Below, piece by piece: positions 30,001-39,000 of a stretch of 64,000 bases of DNA (position 1 is its first letter; each line of letters opens with the position of its first letter). The DNA is taken from sequence record NZ_CP102839.1. One strand, 5' to 3'. A program made the position numbers. This DNA comes from a plasmid.

Positions 30001-33000
30001 TAAGAATCTGGAAGAAACCCGTAAGAACGTCCAGCATCTGTTCCCGGATGATGACTAAGGTGAACTTCCGCGCCATCGCTGACAGCTCTAATGTGGAAAA
30101 TGTGGTGCTGATCAGCGGTGTGCCTGCAGCAGCGGCAGACACTCTGCCGCCGGCAATTTAACTTGATTATATGGCTCATTCGCCGTATTGTTAAGGCTCA
30201 TTTTTCGGTAGCGCCCCGCCTGGCGAAGGAGTAAAACCATGCAATCATTCCCCCTGTTCGTTTCCCGTGCTGTACCGGTGATCATCAGTGACCATTGCCT
30301 GCGGCAGCAGCGCAGCTCCCTGCACCACACGTCATGCCAGATTAACCTGAGTTCAGGAAGTCACCTGCGCTCATGGCCTTTCTGCACGCTATCCAGGCGG
30401 GAAATAAGCGACCGGCAACCGGCTAAGCCCCGCGGTTACTGGTTCAGTCACTGTGGCCGGGATGTCATGTTTACGGGGCATATCGATGAGGCAGATCCTA
30501 TGAAACAGGTCTACTACAACGAAGGCTGGAGCGGTTCGAGCAAGTATACGTTTGAAGTTTATCAGCAGGAGAACGGGAGTTACCGGGCGCTGGTCCGCAA
30601 ATGGAATGGCAAAATCAATAAGGTGCAGCAGGAAACACAGTACCTGTCTGACACGCGAGAGGGACTGAAACTCCAGGACTATCCCCGCACGCGCCAGGTG
30701 AAAATATTTCTGAATTCTGACTTCTGGGAGAAGGGTGATGATTAAGATGGTTAGCGTCGTTCCGCAGCCGGAAACGGTGAAGATGCTCCGGGGAAAAATG
30801 GGCATGACTGAAACCGCATTAGGGGCCGTCATGGGGTATGAACTGCGCGCCTGGCAGCGTAAGGAAGCCATCAGCGACGACCTCAGTCAGTACAACAAGA
30901 CCAGTCTTCGGCCGGGCGAATATAACATGCTGATGCTGATCGCCGGCGTGCATCCTGATTACCGCCTGAACAGGACATTCAGCCCGGATGATATGGTTAA
31001 AGAGCCTGCCACGGCCGAAGACGTTCGCCGCCTGCGTCTGGCGCTGGGGCTGAAACACGCAGAAATTGCAGCGCTGTTTGGCTATAAGCCGGCGTCATGG
31101 CAGACCAAAGAGAAGGCCGCACAGCGTGGCGTGAAGCTCAAGACCGGGGAATTCAACTTCCTGTTACTGCTGGCCGGTGAGCATCCGTCACTGCAGCTGG
31201 TTGAAAAAGTGAAACAAGATCAGCTGCCGACCTGATAAAAGCCCGTTAATTCTGGTTTTTTTATAAAATACTGTATTTACATATAGGACAAAATGTCCTA
31301 ATATATATTTGTGGCCGGGCAAGGTGCTCAGGTCCCCTACCGAGGGAAATATATGAAATTTTCAGCAGAAGAACTCAACATTATCCGCCAGGCGGATGCC
31401 ATTATTGCCAGCAAAATTACCACCACGGATTTTATTACCGGTGCAGACGCCGCGCGTTCCTTGCTGCGGTTTCGTCTTGCTGCAGAACCACGCGAATCAT
31501 TCTGCGCGTTCTTTCTCAACAGTCAGAATGGCGTGATCGCCTTTGAAGAACTGTTTCAGGGAACTATCAACAGTGTCACCGTTCATCCGCGTATCGTCCT
31601 GCAACGCGCCCTGCATCATAATGCCGCCGCCGTGGTACTGGCGCATAACCATCCTTCCGCTTTCACTGAACCCAGTCAGGCTGACAAGCTGATCACCGAG
31701 CGTCTGGCGCAGGTGCTGGGGATGGTTGACGTCAAAGTCCTCGATCACCTGATTGTGGGCGGCTGCGATATTTTCTCTTTTGCTGAACATGGTCTGATTT
31801 GACAACCGCGGCCGCACAGTGGTGCGGCCGGCTCTGGAGGCTTGCTATGGGCAATAAATATACCGTGCCACTGAACGTGGGCGCAATCCGCGAAAGCTGT
31901 TTCCGTCCCGCTGACAAATGGACCCCGCCGACGGGGGATGAACTCCGCTATTTGCTGGAAAATGTGCTCAACCTGAGTCAGGAGGGGCTTGCGCGACATG
32001 TTGGCGTTAACGGCAGAACGGTGCGCCGCTGGGTGAACGGAGAAAGCGACATCGCGTATTCCGTCTGGTGCATCCTTTGCATCGATGCCGGCTTACCGCC
32101 GATCTGGAAATAGCAGCGCAAAACACCGGCGCGAAAATGTGCTTCCTGAAGAGAAGCTGAAGGGCTTGTGCAACTGCGAACCGCAGTACCGAACATCGGT
32201 ACTGGAATCCAGTGAGGGGCTGAGCCGCTATCTGGCCGGGGCTGAAAACTGAGAAGGTGGCCGCCTCCTGCAGGGGCTGTACGGGCATTAAACCTGTATT
32301 GCTCTGAAACGCGCTGTACGCCTCTCTGAGTGCTTCTTTAAAAAAGCTGCAACCTTCTCGCATTAATCGCTTTGACGTGTCCAGGCGCGCATTCAGCCCC
32401 ATTCTGATTTGATTTCGGCCTGGTATTTGCCAGTGAGCCTACTTTAGATATCCGCAGAGCGTTTCCTTCCTGTTCATTTCAGGTCAGTTGCCGTCATTCC
32501 CTGGTGGCTCCACCGTTCCCTCAGCGGGTTCAGGCTATCGCGGGTGTCTGATGCCTGGACCTCTGCACCATGCCGGCAAAGTGCCGCCATCTGGATCTAA
32601 AAGCAATATTTACAGGGACAGGCGTCAAGGGAAAAACAAAGAAAAGTAATCATATAATGCTTGCTTTATATGGCTCATTAGACGTATAATAATCACATCG
32701 AAAGGCAATGAGGCTTTTCGCGGTAGCGCCCCGACTGGCGCAGGAGTAAAAAATTATGAGTAAAGCACTGACCCCTTCCCAGCTTAAAGCTGAACTGGAC
32801 ACGCAGAAAGATGCGCTGCTGAAGGCGTGCCTGTATGCCCTCAACGAAATCCCTAACCGCCGTTTAAGTGGTCCATATTCATCCACGTATGCGCTGGCCG
32901 CGCAGGTCAGTAAACTGCTCCAGAGCTGCAAATAATCATTGAAGGGCTGGCATTACCAGCCCTGTTCAACCCTTACGGTAGCGCCCCGCATGGCGCAGGA

Positions 33001-36000: not shown

Positions 36001-39000
36001 TATCGCTAACCTGATGCACCTGGGGGAAGCGATAAATTTTCGTGTGCTCGATGAGGAAAGCGCGGTGATCCCGTTGGTCAGGATCGCAGCCGTACACTTT
36101 AACGCTGAAACAACGTCATAGTAATCATGTGAATCAGAAGGGGGCAGGCGTGATCCTGCCCCCAAAAATGGACAGGGGAAAGAGTTCTCCCGCCTGAAAA
36201 TATTCAGGCAGGCGGGAATATTTTGCTTGATTAATATGGCTCATTAGACGTATAATAATCACATCGAAAGGCAATGAGGCTTTTCGCGGTAGCGCCCCGA
36301 CTGGCGCAGGAGTACAGAAAATGTCTACTGAACTGAATCAACCCGCCATCACTGCACGCATTATCCCCAATAACCGCCGCATGGCCTTTCTGCCACGCCT
36401 GTTCGGCGCCTGGTATCTCACAGGTGAGGCCGGTGTCTACAACCACGCACGTTCTCTCTGCGCCGATTATCAAGGCGGTTCCTGGGAGTTCGCCGAACTG
36501 TCTTGCGGTAGCGGCTTCATGTACCCACTGAGCGCAGAGCGCTTCACGGTATCGGTTAGCGGTAACTGGTTCGAAGGGGAACTGTCCGCAGAAGCTACCG
36601 GTATCGTGCTGACCCTGTTCACCCTGAACCACATGATCTGGCACGCACATGATGCCGGCTATGAGCACATCTGCGACATGCTGATCACCCAGCAGGAAAA
36701 GCTCAAATTATATGCCGACCAGCACGCCGAAGCCGGTTTGATTTACCGCGCGATTGACTGAAGCGGCGGCCCCCGCGAGGGGGCCAATACTGACAGGGGG
36801 AAAAATGTTAACACTAACTGATATTCGCGCCAGCAATACGGTGCTGGTTACGGAATTTGACGGCGTGCGTGCTGTGCATTTCTGTCTGCATGAAAAATTA
36901 AGCGGTAGCGACAACGATCTGTGGTTTCCGCTTGCCAATGGGGCCGACCTGTTCGAGGCACTGGAAAGCATTATGTGCATCAATTTTGCCGCTGCTAACG
37001 TTGTCTCGCTGGAGTTCCTGCGGCAGAACGGGAAGTGCAAAGACTACCGGATCACCTACAACAAGGCCAAATTCAAGCCATTATGTTAGATATCTGACAT
37101 CATTAAATGTTCATATTTGAACAAAATTAAATTAAAAAATACGTCTGATAAGTTGATAAAATGGCTCATTAGACGTATAATTATTACATCGAAAGGCAGT
37201 TGAGCCTTTCGCGGTAGCGCCCCGACTGGCGACGAGGTAAAAAAAATGGAACTCAATGATACTGCAAAATTACCTGACTCTGATGCACGGAAAATTAACG
37301 CCGTAGCGTCTCAGGCATACCCTCTTGGCCTCCTGCCTAATCTGAAAATTAACTTCTACTCTATTGACGCCATTCAACTTGAACTGCGTGACAACAGTGG
37401 TGATCTTATCTGGCGAGATTTCACGTTCTCCCGCGATTTTATCAACGGTTTTATGCCTTATATCAGACCAATAAATTAGCACTGAATATCGACGGGAGCG
37501 GGGGAGAAACTCCCCCGGAAGGAGATTAAGAAATGGTATTAACCGGTATTGAAACAGTAAAGGTAGCGGTGATCTGTACAGGCCACGTCAGCCATCAAGA
37601 TTCAGAGATTATCCCTGAGTTTCTCTGGAACAACTGGAAAGAATCCGGAGAGTTCTGGATAAGCAGTACTGCTCACGGTTGGTTATTTCGGTTGTGTGCT
37701 CTGCCCGATGAATGGGAGGAGCGTCTGAAAAATTTTGGAGTAAGTGATGGCTGCATATCAAATCTTAGAGTGCTGGAATGTGAAGGATATGACTGGGTTC
37801 ATTTCCAGGCTGATGCACCCATCGTGGAGGAGCTTCAGCACTGGGACTGGTAAAAATCTGGAACACTAAAGGGGGTTTAAAAAGCAGAGAAAAAAAGGGA
37901 GCCGGATTGCGAGAACAATCCGGCAGGTTGACAAAAGAAAATGTGAGGTTTGCTTATGTCATTATCCATTCTACAGCTTGCCGAGGATCTTGCAAAGGGT
38001 AAGCGAATGAGAGTACCACCGATGAACGGACCGGAGTGGCGACACTTCTGTTTCTGGCTTGAATATTACATGGGATACAGTATGTAAAGTAACGAACGGC
38101 GCTCATGGAAGCGCCGTTTTTTTTAACTTTCAGCAGGGGGAATTTCACGCCTGGACTGGCGTTTTATCATCAGTAGATGAAGAGACCCGCTTTCTCTGAC
38201 GTGTTCTTTTTCCTTCAGTAATCTCTTTTAAATCTTTAAGCGTCACGTCATGAAAACCAAAGTTTTTAAGGTGCTCAAGGATTTCGCTGAGTGTGTATCC
38301 CTTGTTTTTAATCAGCGTCTCAATATCACTTTTCAGGGAATCAAGTACATCTCGTTTCTGTAATCTTTCTTGCGTCACATCTGGGAGTTCAGCCAGCTGA
38401 CCTCGAATAGATTCGATGTCTGTTGTGCTGTACAGCTTCGATTTTTTGGCAACCATTCTGGAATCCTCCACCGGAAAATTTTTCATTGTATCTACCGAAA
38501 AAATCATTACAAGCAGAGCAGAATTTTCTGCGTAAAAATTTGGATAACCAGCTCCGGAAATCATAATCCCTTAGCGTTAGAGGAAGCGTAGCCTATCCCG
38601 TTCTCTGTGAAACACAGGCGATGATGTGCCTTGCATGAATATCAATATACCTGAACTAGCGCAGCGTACTCCCTTTGTCATCTGGCATACAGGTTGCAAA
38701 TTTGCTAAACTCATTCGCGAAGTTCAAAAGCGGGACAGGATATGTTTTGTATTACCGCCACCACGGTGGCAGCAATCCAAAACTCCTGGTCAGGGCGAAG
38801 CCCCGACACCCCAGACTGTGCTAACTGTTGGACTGAAAGGAAGATTTAGCGTCATGAGTAAGAGTGAGCGACGTAACAGAACAGCCACTCTTCCGCCGGT
38901 AAGGTGCCTTCCGGAAGAGCGGGATGAGATACGTCAAAAGGCGGAGGATGCGGGTCTCAGCATAGGTGCATTTATGCTTAGGGCTGCGTTAGGAAGGAAG

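Follow-up and report, generated by a model that had tools for sequence, protein, structure and literature searches.

We report here on a 64,000-nucleotide stretch of a plasmid (sequence record NZ_CP102839.1; hereafter the window), in which a short promoter/leader cassette recurs at ten sites, all on the + strand and all between positions 30160 and 37250, with no other copy in the 64 kb and none on the - strand. We propose that this array is the establishment regulon of the leading region, that it is built from one portable expression module, that it is repressed by Orf20, a protein with tandem helix-turn-helix (HTH) modules encoded within the array, and that it carries an additional layer of control at the RNA level. 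To this proposal as a whole we give a probability of about 60%.

The array itself stands out clearly. The 26-nt leader box GGTAGCGCCCCGACTGGCGCAGGAGT has eight matches with at most three mismatches, all on the + strand, where none is expected (100 shuffles), and a ninth copy with four mismatches lies at 37213. The promoter box ATGGCTCATTAGACGTATAAT has six matches with at most three mismatches versus none expected, and a seventh, degenerate box lies at 30171. The same repeat families were recovered by an independent repeat finder. The ten-copy promoter/leader array that had been claimed in a sequence-only reading of this DNA is thus upheld, the repeats being far above chance, strand-specific and confined to 30160–37250. 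However, the copies are not divided into six full and four leader-only ones, as had been stated: six sites have both promoter and leader (start codons at 30239, 32756, 34058, 35344, 36321 and 37246), three have only the leader (33008, 35023 and 35816) and one has only the promoter, ahead of the start codon at 34837 of an unannotated open reading frame (ORF) of 37 amino acids (aa). Moreover, that reading had overlooked a second, upstream hairpin, CGAAAGGC...GCCTTTCG. The module consists of four parts, namely a sigma-70 promoter with its box, hairpin 1 (the upstream one), hairpin 2, and AGGAG followed by the start codon. In copy 1 the distance between the -10 element and the leader is 19 nt and not the claimed 35 nt or so, and the GCGCC-N6-GGCGC hairpin (hairpin 2) claimed for each copy is intact in six of nine, with the outer pair broken in copies 1, 4 and 10. 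A scan of 28000–40000 with the Rfam covariance models, on both strands, gave no match at E <= 1.

As judged from sequence, the replicon is an IncL/M-family conjugative plasmid of the pOXA-48 type. The region 30100–37900 has 100% identity to many Klebsiella plasmids of 60–96 kb, with 1222 PLSDB records matching. In the annotated relative pL22-4 the transfer system is of the IncI-like MPF_I type and the relaxase is NikA/MOBP, and the genes are arranged as repA-trbCBA-excA-traY...H, as is typical of IncL/M plasmids. With a single 99-nt cassette as the query, 1168 PLSDB records are retrieved with 4–7 places each, including the 61.9-kb pOXA-48 type at about 95% identity; pOXA-48 itself shows the same gene order, with 10 leader boxes and 9 promoter boxes. 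In pCTX-M3 and pOXA-48, oriT, the origin of transfer, lies upstream of nikA, and the divergent orf35 has been termed the first leading-region gene (PMC8125031, PMC6112013). The gene order in the window, from the array through an orf35-like gene to nikA and the relaxase gene, is that of pCTX-M3/pOXA-48 (PMC6112013), and by analogy the array region, to the left of nikA, would be the leading region. The published nic sequence of pCTX-M3, ACATCTTGT, was not found near nikA, and the position of oriT is by analogy only. With oriT placed in this way, the cassette genes are all directed toward it, and therefore the transferred strand would be their template. It is noted that the array is confined to the stretch between the partition genes and oriT, and that the modules are placed directly 5' of start codons in the putative leading region, as described earlier; they lie beside nikA and the relaxase gene, with the genes pointing toward oriT.

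The seven promoters are near-consensus sigma-70 promoters, with -35 hexamers TTGATT, TTGCTT, TTGAAT or TTGATA, a spacer of 17 or 18 nt and a perfect TATAAT as the -10 element in five of the seven, and they are among the best matches of a consensus promoter scanner. They share the box GCTCATTAgACGTaTAATGA, a near-palindrome that matches its own reverse complement, is centred on ACGT and covers the spacer and the -10 element. In 121 unique promoter segments collected from relatives, the spacer GGCTCATTAGACG changes as little as the -10 element, while the sequence upstream of the -35 element and downstream of the -10 element varies. In cassette 10 a second, partial and inverted box is placed directly against the -35 element. 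The box looks like an operator, and Orf20 would be the protein that binds it.

Orf20 (165 aa; 30738–31235, + strand; a homologue of pOXA-48 orf20 / DNDJGHEP_0014) appears from its sequence to be the best candidate regulator, as had been suggested. It has an internal duplication that gives two Xre-type HTH modules of about 70 aa each, and it is 97% identical to the pOXA-48 copy. Its AlphaFold2 (AF2) model has two helical modules, with a predicted local distance difference test score (pLDDT) of 87.6. In Pfam it has generic HTH_31/HTH_3/Xre-like matches only, even at E <= 10, and the nearest solved structures are single-module regulators, i.e., Aca1, Aca10, Aca2, C-proteins and antitoxins, with Foldseek E values of 0.25–1 that are generic; by sequence the Aca10 structure 7xi5 is matched at E 0.04. 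In pOXA-48, deletion of orf20 is possible only with a copy provided in trans, the transconjugants that receive the orf20-deleted plasmid filament and fail, silencing of the orf20 operon by CRISPR interference (CRISPRi) leads to plasmid loss, and the targets of Orf20 and KorC were stated as unknown (PMC12365149, PMC12361523).

Upstream of orf20, and overlapping it, is orf19 (168 aa; 30239–30745, +), a homologue of pOXA-48 orf19. Its N-terminal 87 aa (30239–30499) are rich in Arg, Ser, Cys and Pro, poorly conserved, subject to in-frame indels and modelled as disordered, and its C-terminal 81 aa (30500–30742; Orf19C) form a strongly conserved domain, which in an exhaustive homologue search is often found as a stand-alone protein of about 80–87 aa. 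A word-indexed search retrieved close IncL/M relatives only, and the exhaustive search was required to build a useful profile. With 16 sequences, that profile matches ArdR of R46 at an hhalign probability of 93.6% (E 2.2e-7, 76 columns), and a smaller profile of 8 sequences gives 80.7%; on this profile evidence the C-terminal domain is a member of the ArdR family. Whole Orf19 has no sequence match in the PDB, no Pfam match and no meaningful NCBIfam match, and its AF2 model (pLDDT 38.5) is unusable. Note also that in some records only a 92-aa C-terminal product of orf19 is annotated, under the name 'sugar ABC transporter substrate-binding protein', apparently by misannotation.

By contrast, KorC belongs to a circuit separate from the cassettes. 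A perfect KorC-type palindrome, TAGGACAAAATGTCCTA, lies at 31284–31300 in the promoter of the radC (JAB)-korC operon. It occurs once in the 64 kb, and at up to three mismatches it is found in none of the cassettes, in agreement with pOXA-48, where the orf24-korC promoter is the one place reported to have a KorC site (PMC12365149, PMC12361523). RadC, which had been placed under cassette control, has its own separate promoter. The kil-kor regulons of IncP/IncU plasmids (KorA/KorB/KorC) are similar in that they rest on global plasmid repressors whose loss is host-lethal, and homologues of KorC and KlcA are present here; they are different in that the KorC-type palindrome is single and outside the cassettes, and the cassette box is unrelated to it.

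The association of the two proteins with the cis elements is seen also in an unrelated backbone. Serratia IncX-like plasmids, which have a Rep3 replicon, a VirB-type type IV secretion system and a MobP1 relaxase, encode a tandem-HTH homologue of Orf20 (42% identity, E 4e-32) and, directly upstream of it, an 89-aa homologue of Orf19C (E 4e-9). The only proteins that their leading region shares with the window are these two, a 43-aa ORF and weak relaxase matches; among the Serratia leading-region proteins compared there is no KorC homologue. Three leaders occur in these plasmids, with the form CGGTA-CGCC-CCGNNN-GGCG-N-TAGGAG-N-ATG; one is a leader-only copy ahead of the regulator operon. There are also three promoters with an invariant box of their own, ATATCAAACGATGTATAAT, each followed by a different 5' hairpin. 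The two proteins and the cis elements thus travel as a set between backbones that are otherwise unrelated, and no other argument speaks as strongly for a single regulatory system made up of them. The leading regions of IncX3 and IncI2 plasmids, which are further MOBP families, contain single-module Orf20 homologues beside repeated palindromes of their own: in the IncX3 plasmid pHNYX658-1 there are two 98-nt promoter/leader repeats (1260–1357 and 3285–3382 of L055), in which ACCATCAT(A/T)TGATGGT overlaps the -10 element, and in the IncI2 plasmid pSH146_65 the palindrome CTTTACAnTGTAAAG is repeated (1454, 3177 and 3316 of L056). The hairpin 2 motif and Orf19C are absent from these IncX3 and IncI2 leading regions; the small ORFs upstream of the HTH gene there were considered as relatives of Orf19C and are unrelated. 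The comparison suggests a widespread leading-region repressor family with plasmid-specific operators.

We now consider the leader. Hairpin 1 begins about 9 nt past the -10 element, i.e., about 2 nt past the predicted transcription start. Over 34 aligned, distinct 5' untranslated regions (UTRs) from the window, pOXA-48, Enterobacter, Pluralibacter, Erwinia and metagenomic contigs, 99.3% of the cells of its helix are paired, compared with 38–49% in slid-partner controls; double-sided changes are seen in four of the eight pairs (GC<->CG, AU<->GC, GC<->AU), and the covariation score is reached by none of 500 shuffles. There are 28 cells that are G.U on the + strand and would be A.C mismatches on the other strand, and therefore the sense RNA, rather than the transferred DNA strand, is where hairpin 1 forms. 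In the RNAfold minimum-energy fold of each full copy both hairpins are formed, with the Shine-Dalgarno sequence (SD) and the AUG unpaired, and at the hairpin 1 position of the promoter-only copy there is another, unrelated hairpin. Conserved as structure only, hairpin 1 is most likely a 5'-end stabiliser of the mRNA, the start site being a predicted one. Stem-loops of the ompA type at 5' termini are mRNA stabilisers, and hairpin 1 resembles them in its distance of about 2 nt from the 5' end, which is predicted and not mapped, and in being conserved in structure only.

Hairpin 2, CGGUA-GCGCC-CCGNNN-GGCGC, is constrained in sequence, and AGGAG follows 1 nt after the stem. Across 134 collected copies the stem core, the first three bases of the loop and the CGG(U/C)A flank show almost no variation, and in all 134, which come from related plasmids, the start codon lies 5–9 nt after AGGAG. 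Two independent C-to-U changes each leave a U.G pair, and in the Serratia plasmids one paralogous hairpin 2 has CACC/GGTG where the others have CGCC/GGCG, a compensatory change; since MAFFT misaligned the Serratia copies with a 5-nt loop, this covariation was read directly and checked by folding. Hairpin 2 stands without a promoter ahead of three internal cistrons, two of which are preceded by GC hairpins with no T-run. These features point to an RNA element that is read sequence-specifically, on evidence thinner than that for hairpin 1. The earlier suggestion that the hairpin is either a repressor-binding site or a translational element is thereby narrowed, with the pairing pattern favouring a structure in the sense-strand RNA. 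The internal cistrons at 36805 and 37533, which are without the shared leader, have unrelated GC-rich hairpins just 5' of the SD (GGCCCCCGCGAGGGGGCC at 36770–36804; GGGGGAGAAACTCCCCC and then GGAAGGAG at 37490–37532), and it seems that cistrons of this region are generally built with a hairpin ahead of the SD. An antisense RNA acting in trans on the leaders was considered and rejected, there being no complement of the leader of at least 11 nt anywhere in the window.

The findings described above, on the repeats and where they lie, on covariation and homology and on co-occurrence across backbones, lead us to infer promoter activity, binding partners, timing and an RNA-level mechanism as follows. 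In the established cell the seven strong sigma-70 promoters would be shut by Orf20 bound to their common box, with the orf19-orf20 operon, driven by the most distal and variant cassette, being autoregulated. After transfer, the DNA would arrive free of repressor, and the oriT-proximal units would fire until Orf20 has accumulated, i.e., by zygotic induction, with orf20 being the last gene of the array to enter the recipient. Upon loss of Orf20 the whole set of about 14 genes, some presumably harmful, would be derepressed, which would account for the indispensability of orf20 in pOXA-48. In the transcripts, hairpin 1, lying about 2 nt inside the predicted 5' terminus, would shield that terminus, and hairpin 2, present on nine cistrons of which three are inside operons, would standardise or control translation gene by gene, either by keeping the SD exposed independently of context or by binding Orf20 or Orf19C. 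Repressor-based zygotic induction of establishment genes has been shown for p576 (PMC8708921) and suggested for the conserved upstream (CUP) elements of IncN plasmids (PMC6294495). In the EGeRS2 system of the p576/pLS20 family of Bacillus plasmids, one repressor acts on its own promoter and on several strong promoters of establishment operons that vary in content, so that expression rises briefly in the recipient (PMC8708921, PMC6294495), as is proposed here; that system differs in being Gram-positive, in its ribbon-helix-helix repressor and its unrelated sequences, and in that no conserved SD-proximal RNA hairpin has been reported for it.

Several observations weigh against this model. The promoter proposed to be autoregulated, that of orf19-orf20 in cassette 1, has the leader and the poorest box, a variant in which only the half-site GGCTCATT is present, twice. 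The palindrome of the box is matched at only 7–8 of 10 positions, and the conservation of the box could come partly from selection on the -10 element or from concerted evolution of duplicated modules. In pOXA-48, deletion of orf19 is neutral (PMC12365149, PMC12361523), and therefore a role for Orf19 is only putative; the orf20 phenotype could arise through a relation of the toxin-antitoxin type between orf20 and another gene. Since the copies in IncL/M plasmids all have a common ancestry, the counts across plasmids are not independent. The covariation of hairpin 2 amounts to three events only. With unrelated GC hairpins standing before the SD at 36805 and 37533, a purely structural role of hairpin 2 is possible.

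A more specific form of the model is that Orf20, possibly together with Orf19C, is a dual DNA- and RNA-binding regulator like the phage protein Aca2, reading the box in the DNA and hairpin 2 in the RNA, where it would occlude the SD. We put this forward by analogy and tentatively. The HTH proteins Aca1 and Aca2 control phage anti-CRISPR operons by binding both promoter DNA and RNA hairpins in the 5' UTR, and the layout is alike in the inverted repeat overlapping the promoter, in the 5'-UTR hairpin by the ribosome-binding site, in the occurrence of RNA motifs alone inside operons and in the presence of several neighbouring operons with pairs of DNA and RNA motifs (PMC13551039). The differences are that Orf20 matches no Aca Pfam family, that it is a fused tandem and not a homodimer, that it is encoded by a plasmid and not a phage, and that the operator here is not transcribed, so that the DNA and RNA sites differ in sequence. 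If this dual reading were true, the leader would be an undescribed cis-regulatory RNA motif that moves between unrelated backbones together with two proteins, and the establishment and anti-defence regulon of the main carbapenemase plasmid family would be silenced cistron by cistron.

The element GCGCC-N6-GGCGC might instead act as double-stranded DNA (duplex GCGCCCCGACTGGCGC), being an operator for Orf20 or for another dimeric or tandem HTH protein that forms a roadblock at about +30 to +45 and halts the elongating RNA polymerase gene by gene, also inside operons, with the promoter box then being a plain strong promoter or the site of another factor. As a 5-6-5 inverted repeat with half-site centres 11 bp apart, the element would fit two HTH modules; it stands before every regulated cistron, including the regulator's own operon, and it co-occurs with the tandem-HTH homologue in Serratia and is missing in IncX3, where the homologue has a single module. 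However, the substitutions in the stem preserve pairing, including the U.G pairs that exist in the sense strand only and the change of CGCC/GGCG to CACC/GGTG; the conservation is asymmetric, the loop being CCG and then variable and the flanks CGGTA and AGGAG non-symmetric; and the fixed 1 nt to the SD and 5–9 nt to the start codon have no rationale in a roadblock. We therefore regard the roadblock as doubtful.

The modules might also be constitutive, high-expression units without a dedicated regulator, which spread by duplication and recombination, serve as junctions for the swapping of cargo and are silenced, if at all, through H-NS/Hha-type proteins. The comparison with pOXA-48 bears on this. 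A 1.2-kb segment of pOXA-48 (1943–3150 of L003, against 31218–31235 of the window), consisting of orf21, one more full cassette and two small genes (one encoding a DUF3085 protein), is missing here, and therefore the number of cassettes varies between close relatives. The nucleotide homology to pOXA-48 ends at 37232 (10458 of L003), which is the 3' end of the cassette 10 hairpin; past it there are the 77-aa and DUF5983 ORFs here and a 73-aa ORF and ssb in pOXA-48, and therefore the leader marks a module junction. This exact end of homology, the variation of cassette number and cargo among relatives, the GC hairpins just 5' of the SD at other internal cistrons, the Hha gene within the array and the report that leading regions are tuned for translational efficiency (PMC13478746) would all fit with constitutive modules. 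On the other side, the spacer is conserved like the hexamers even where hairpin 1 has diverged, which is beyond the needs of a promoter; the box and the leader accompany the Orf19C/Orf20 pair in an unrelated backbone; orf20 is essential for carriage of pOXA-48 (PMC12365149); and seven unrepressed consensus promoters would be costly. Such unregulated modules are thus unlikely.

It is quite improbable, in our view, that orf19-orf20 is an addiction or toxin-antitoxin-like module, with the cassettes being controlled by KorC or a host factor. Orf20 does have weak matches to HTH proteins of the antitoxin type (Xre-like-HTH, MqsA and HigA/HipB folds), it is the second of an overlapping gene pair and its loss is deleterious (PMC12365149); but the deletion of orf19 is neutral (PMC12365149) and orf19 has no toxin features, Orf19C is in the ArdR regulator family, the operon itself bears the cassette box and leader, and the KorC operator is single and outside the cassettes. 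Finally, that the hairpins act in the transferred single strand, as promoters of the Frpo/ssi type or as priming sites, is extremely improbable: single-stranded promoters occur in the leading regions of IncF and IncI1 plasmids (PMC12672017) and the array lies in the leading region with the inferred transferred strand as the template for all its genes (PMC8125031, PMC6112013), but the -35 and -10 elements have no complementary partner nearby and cannot be rebuilt in a hairpin, the stems are just 5–8 bp with 28 hairpin 1 G.U pairs that become A.C mismatches on that strand, and the sole long ORF-free stretch, 32114–32660, folds no better than shuffles (z = -1.0).

We return to the array as an Orf20-repressed regulon and compare it with the CUP regulon of the IncN plasmids pKM101/R46, to which the sequence-only reading had likened it. 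In both, a repeated promoter and a structured leader abut the start codons of several leading-region units, including ArdB/KlcA, regulators are encoded by the plasmid within the region, and a protein of the ArdR family is present, here as the C-terminal domain of Orf19; the window KlcA has 31% identity to R46 ArdB. ArdR is one of two named regulators of CUP-controlled genes (PMC6294495, PMC8744291). The likeness does not extend to the repeat DNA or to Orf20: in blastn-short comparisons of four cassettes with R46 there are only chance 10–15-mers, none of them collinear with the CUP element, Orf20 has no BLASTP alignment with ArdK, and KorC has with ArdK only chance matches of 7–12 aa. CUPs are about 230–300 bp or more in length, and the cassettes here about 100 bp; the R46 backbone is MPF_T/MOBF, and that here is MPF_I/MOBP; and leader-only copies inside operons, as seen here, are not known from CUP. 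On these comparisons the array is CUP-like in architecture and not a member of the CUP family. A full-text literature search for the motif strings and for descriptions of such an array in IncL/M plasmids found none, although an earlier mention is possible.

The individual cassettes, all on the + strand, are arranged as follows, with about 14 small genes headed by the array; KlcA/ArdB is among them, as had been said. Cassette 1 (30163–30241), the short form predicted to drive orf19-orf20, has the -35 element TTGATT at 30163–30168, the variant box GGCTCATTCGCCGTATTGT, which with the -10 element reads GCTCATTCGCCGTATTGT at 30174–30191, and a second GGCTCATT at 30195. Hairpin 1 is absent from this shortened copy, and hairpin 2 (30211–30226, outer pair broken) is followed by AGGAG at 30227–30231 and ATG at 30239. 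Cassette 2, a full one (32661–32758), has the -35 element TTGCTT at 32661–32666, the box and -10 element at 32673–32690, a transcription start site (TSS) predicted at about 32697, hairpin 1 at 32699–32720, hairpin 2 at 32726–32741, AGGAG at 32742–32746 and ATG at 32756, and heads a 59-aa ORF (32756–32935). Ahead of cassette 3, which is leader-only (32977–33010; hairpin 2 at 32981–32996, AGGAG at 32997–33001, ATG at 33008), there is an intercistronic GC hairpin at 32943–32963 with no T-run, and the cargo is a DUF4942 protein (33008–33868). Cassette 4, also full (33964–34060), has TTGAAT as the -35 element and the box and -10 element at 33976–33993, with the best palindrome, ...TATAATGAT; its TSS is predicted at about 34000, hairpin 1 is at 34002–34023, hairpin 2 at 34029–34044 (the outer pair being C-C) and ATG at 34058, and its cargo is a 112-aa ORF (34058–34396) and then an Hha/YmoA gene (34494–34724), as one unit.

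Cassette 5, promoter only (34757–34839), has the box and -10 element at 34768–34785, a predicted TSS at about 34792 and a 5' hairpin of its own, ACUGAUUCAAAUCAGU (34792–34807), unrelated to hairpin 1; its ATG at 34837 opens the unannotated hydrophobic 37-aa ORF (34837–34950; MTSSEILHNLPQIITAVAALITAITGLIKVMKDKGKD). That ORF is conserved in pOXA-48 and may be, from its sequence, a small membrane peptide or have a 'kil' function. It is distinct from the published DqlB toxin, whose gene is located between repA and trbC. Leader-only cassette 6 (34989–35025; hairpin 2 at 34993–35008, AGGAG at 35009–35013, GTG at 35023) precedes a 78-aa ORF (35023–35259) and is itself preceded by a GC hairpin at 34957–34978 with no T-run. 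Cassette 7, full (35252–35346), has TTGATT as the -35 element, the box and -10 element (TACAAT) at 35264–35281, a predicted TSS at about 35288, hairpin 1 at 35290–35310, hairpin 2 at 35316–35331 and ATG at 35344, where the gene of a DUF1380 protein (35344–35754) begins. Cassette 8, again leader-only (35783–35818; hairpin 2 at 35787–35802, AGGAG at 35803–35807, ATG at 35816), is followed by a 101-aa ORF (35816–36121).

Cassette 9 (36227–36323) is the full consensus copy, with the -35 element TTGATT at 36227–36232, the box and -10 element at 36239–36256, a predicted TSS at about 36263, hairpin 1 at 36265–36286, hairpin 2 at 36292–36307, AGGAG at 36308–36312 and ATG at 36321; it heads KlcA/ArdB (36321–36761) and then a 94-aa ORF (36805–37089). 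Cassette 10 (37139–37248), the full copy nearest oriT, has the extra inverted box ATACGTCTGATAAG at 37139–37152 abutting the -35 element TTGATA (37153–37158), the box and -10 element at 37164–37181, a predicted TSS at about 37188, hairpin 1 at 37190–37211, hairpin 2 at 37217–37232 with 4 bp, GAGG as the SD and ATG at 37246; its cargo is a 77-aa ORF (37246–37479) and then a DUF5983 protein (37533–37853). The recognisable products are thus not only KlcA/ArdB and RadC, as had been stated, but also the DUF4942, Hha, DUF1380, DUF5983 and KorC-like HTH proteins. The anti-defence functions that had been proposed for the unknown ORFs are speculative.

Outside the cassettes, the interval from the array to oriT contains a 43-aa ORF (37956–38084, +; MSLSILQLAEDLAKGKRMRVPPMNGPEWRHFCFWLEYYMGYSM), which is conserved both in pOXA-48 and, with 40% identity, in the Serratia IncX-like plasmids. 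At 32114–32650 there are 540 bp with no ORF that are 77% similar to the 3' end and downstream sequence of the pOXA-48 DGQHR (DndB-like) gene, and judged by this similarity the ORF-free stretch 32114–32660 is a remnant of that gene, lost in this plasmid. At about 41.3–43.9 kb (17278–19801 of L001), on the opposite strand and directly after the relaxase gene, there are genes of a hybrid sensor histidine kinase/response regulator and a molybdopterin-dependent oxidoreductase and a hypothetical gene, a cargo that is unusual within the transfer region in comparison with pOXA-48.

We finally note what the model means for this plasmid family. Carbapenem resistance through OXA-48 is carried mainly by IncL/M plasmids of the pOXA-48 type, and two 2025 studies found Orf20 (and KorC) indispensable for keeping the plasmid, without naming the genes that are controlled. 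The array offers a testable answer, with at least seven near-consensus promoters, nine shared leaders and about 14 entry-region genes, and with the box GCTCATTAGACGTATAATGA as the candidate Orf20 site; the modules of the array are probably the missing targets of Orf20 in pOXA-48. Moreover, the array ties the little-studied CUP/ArdR system of IncN plasmids to IncL/M plasmids through a shared protein family. The leader RNA motif that it defines is conserved and accompanies its regulators from one backbone to another. The co-regulated small proteins are then reasonable candidates for functions in establishment or anti-defence, or for the toxicity seen upon loss of Orf20.

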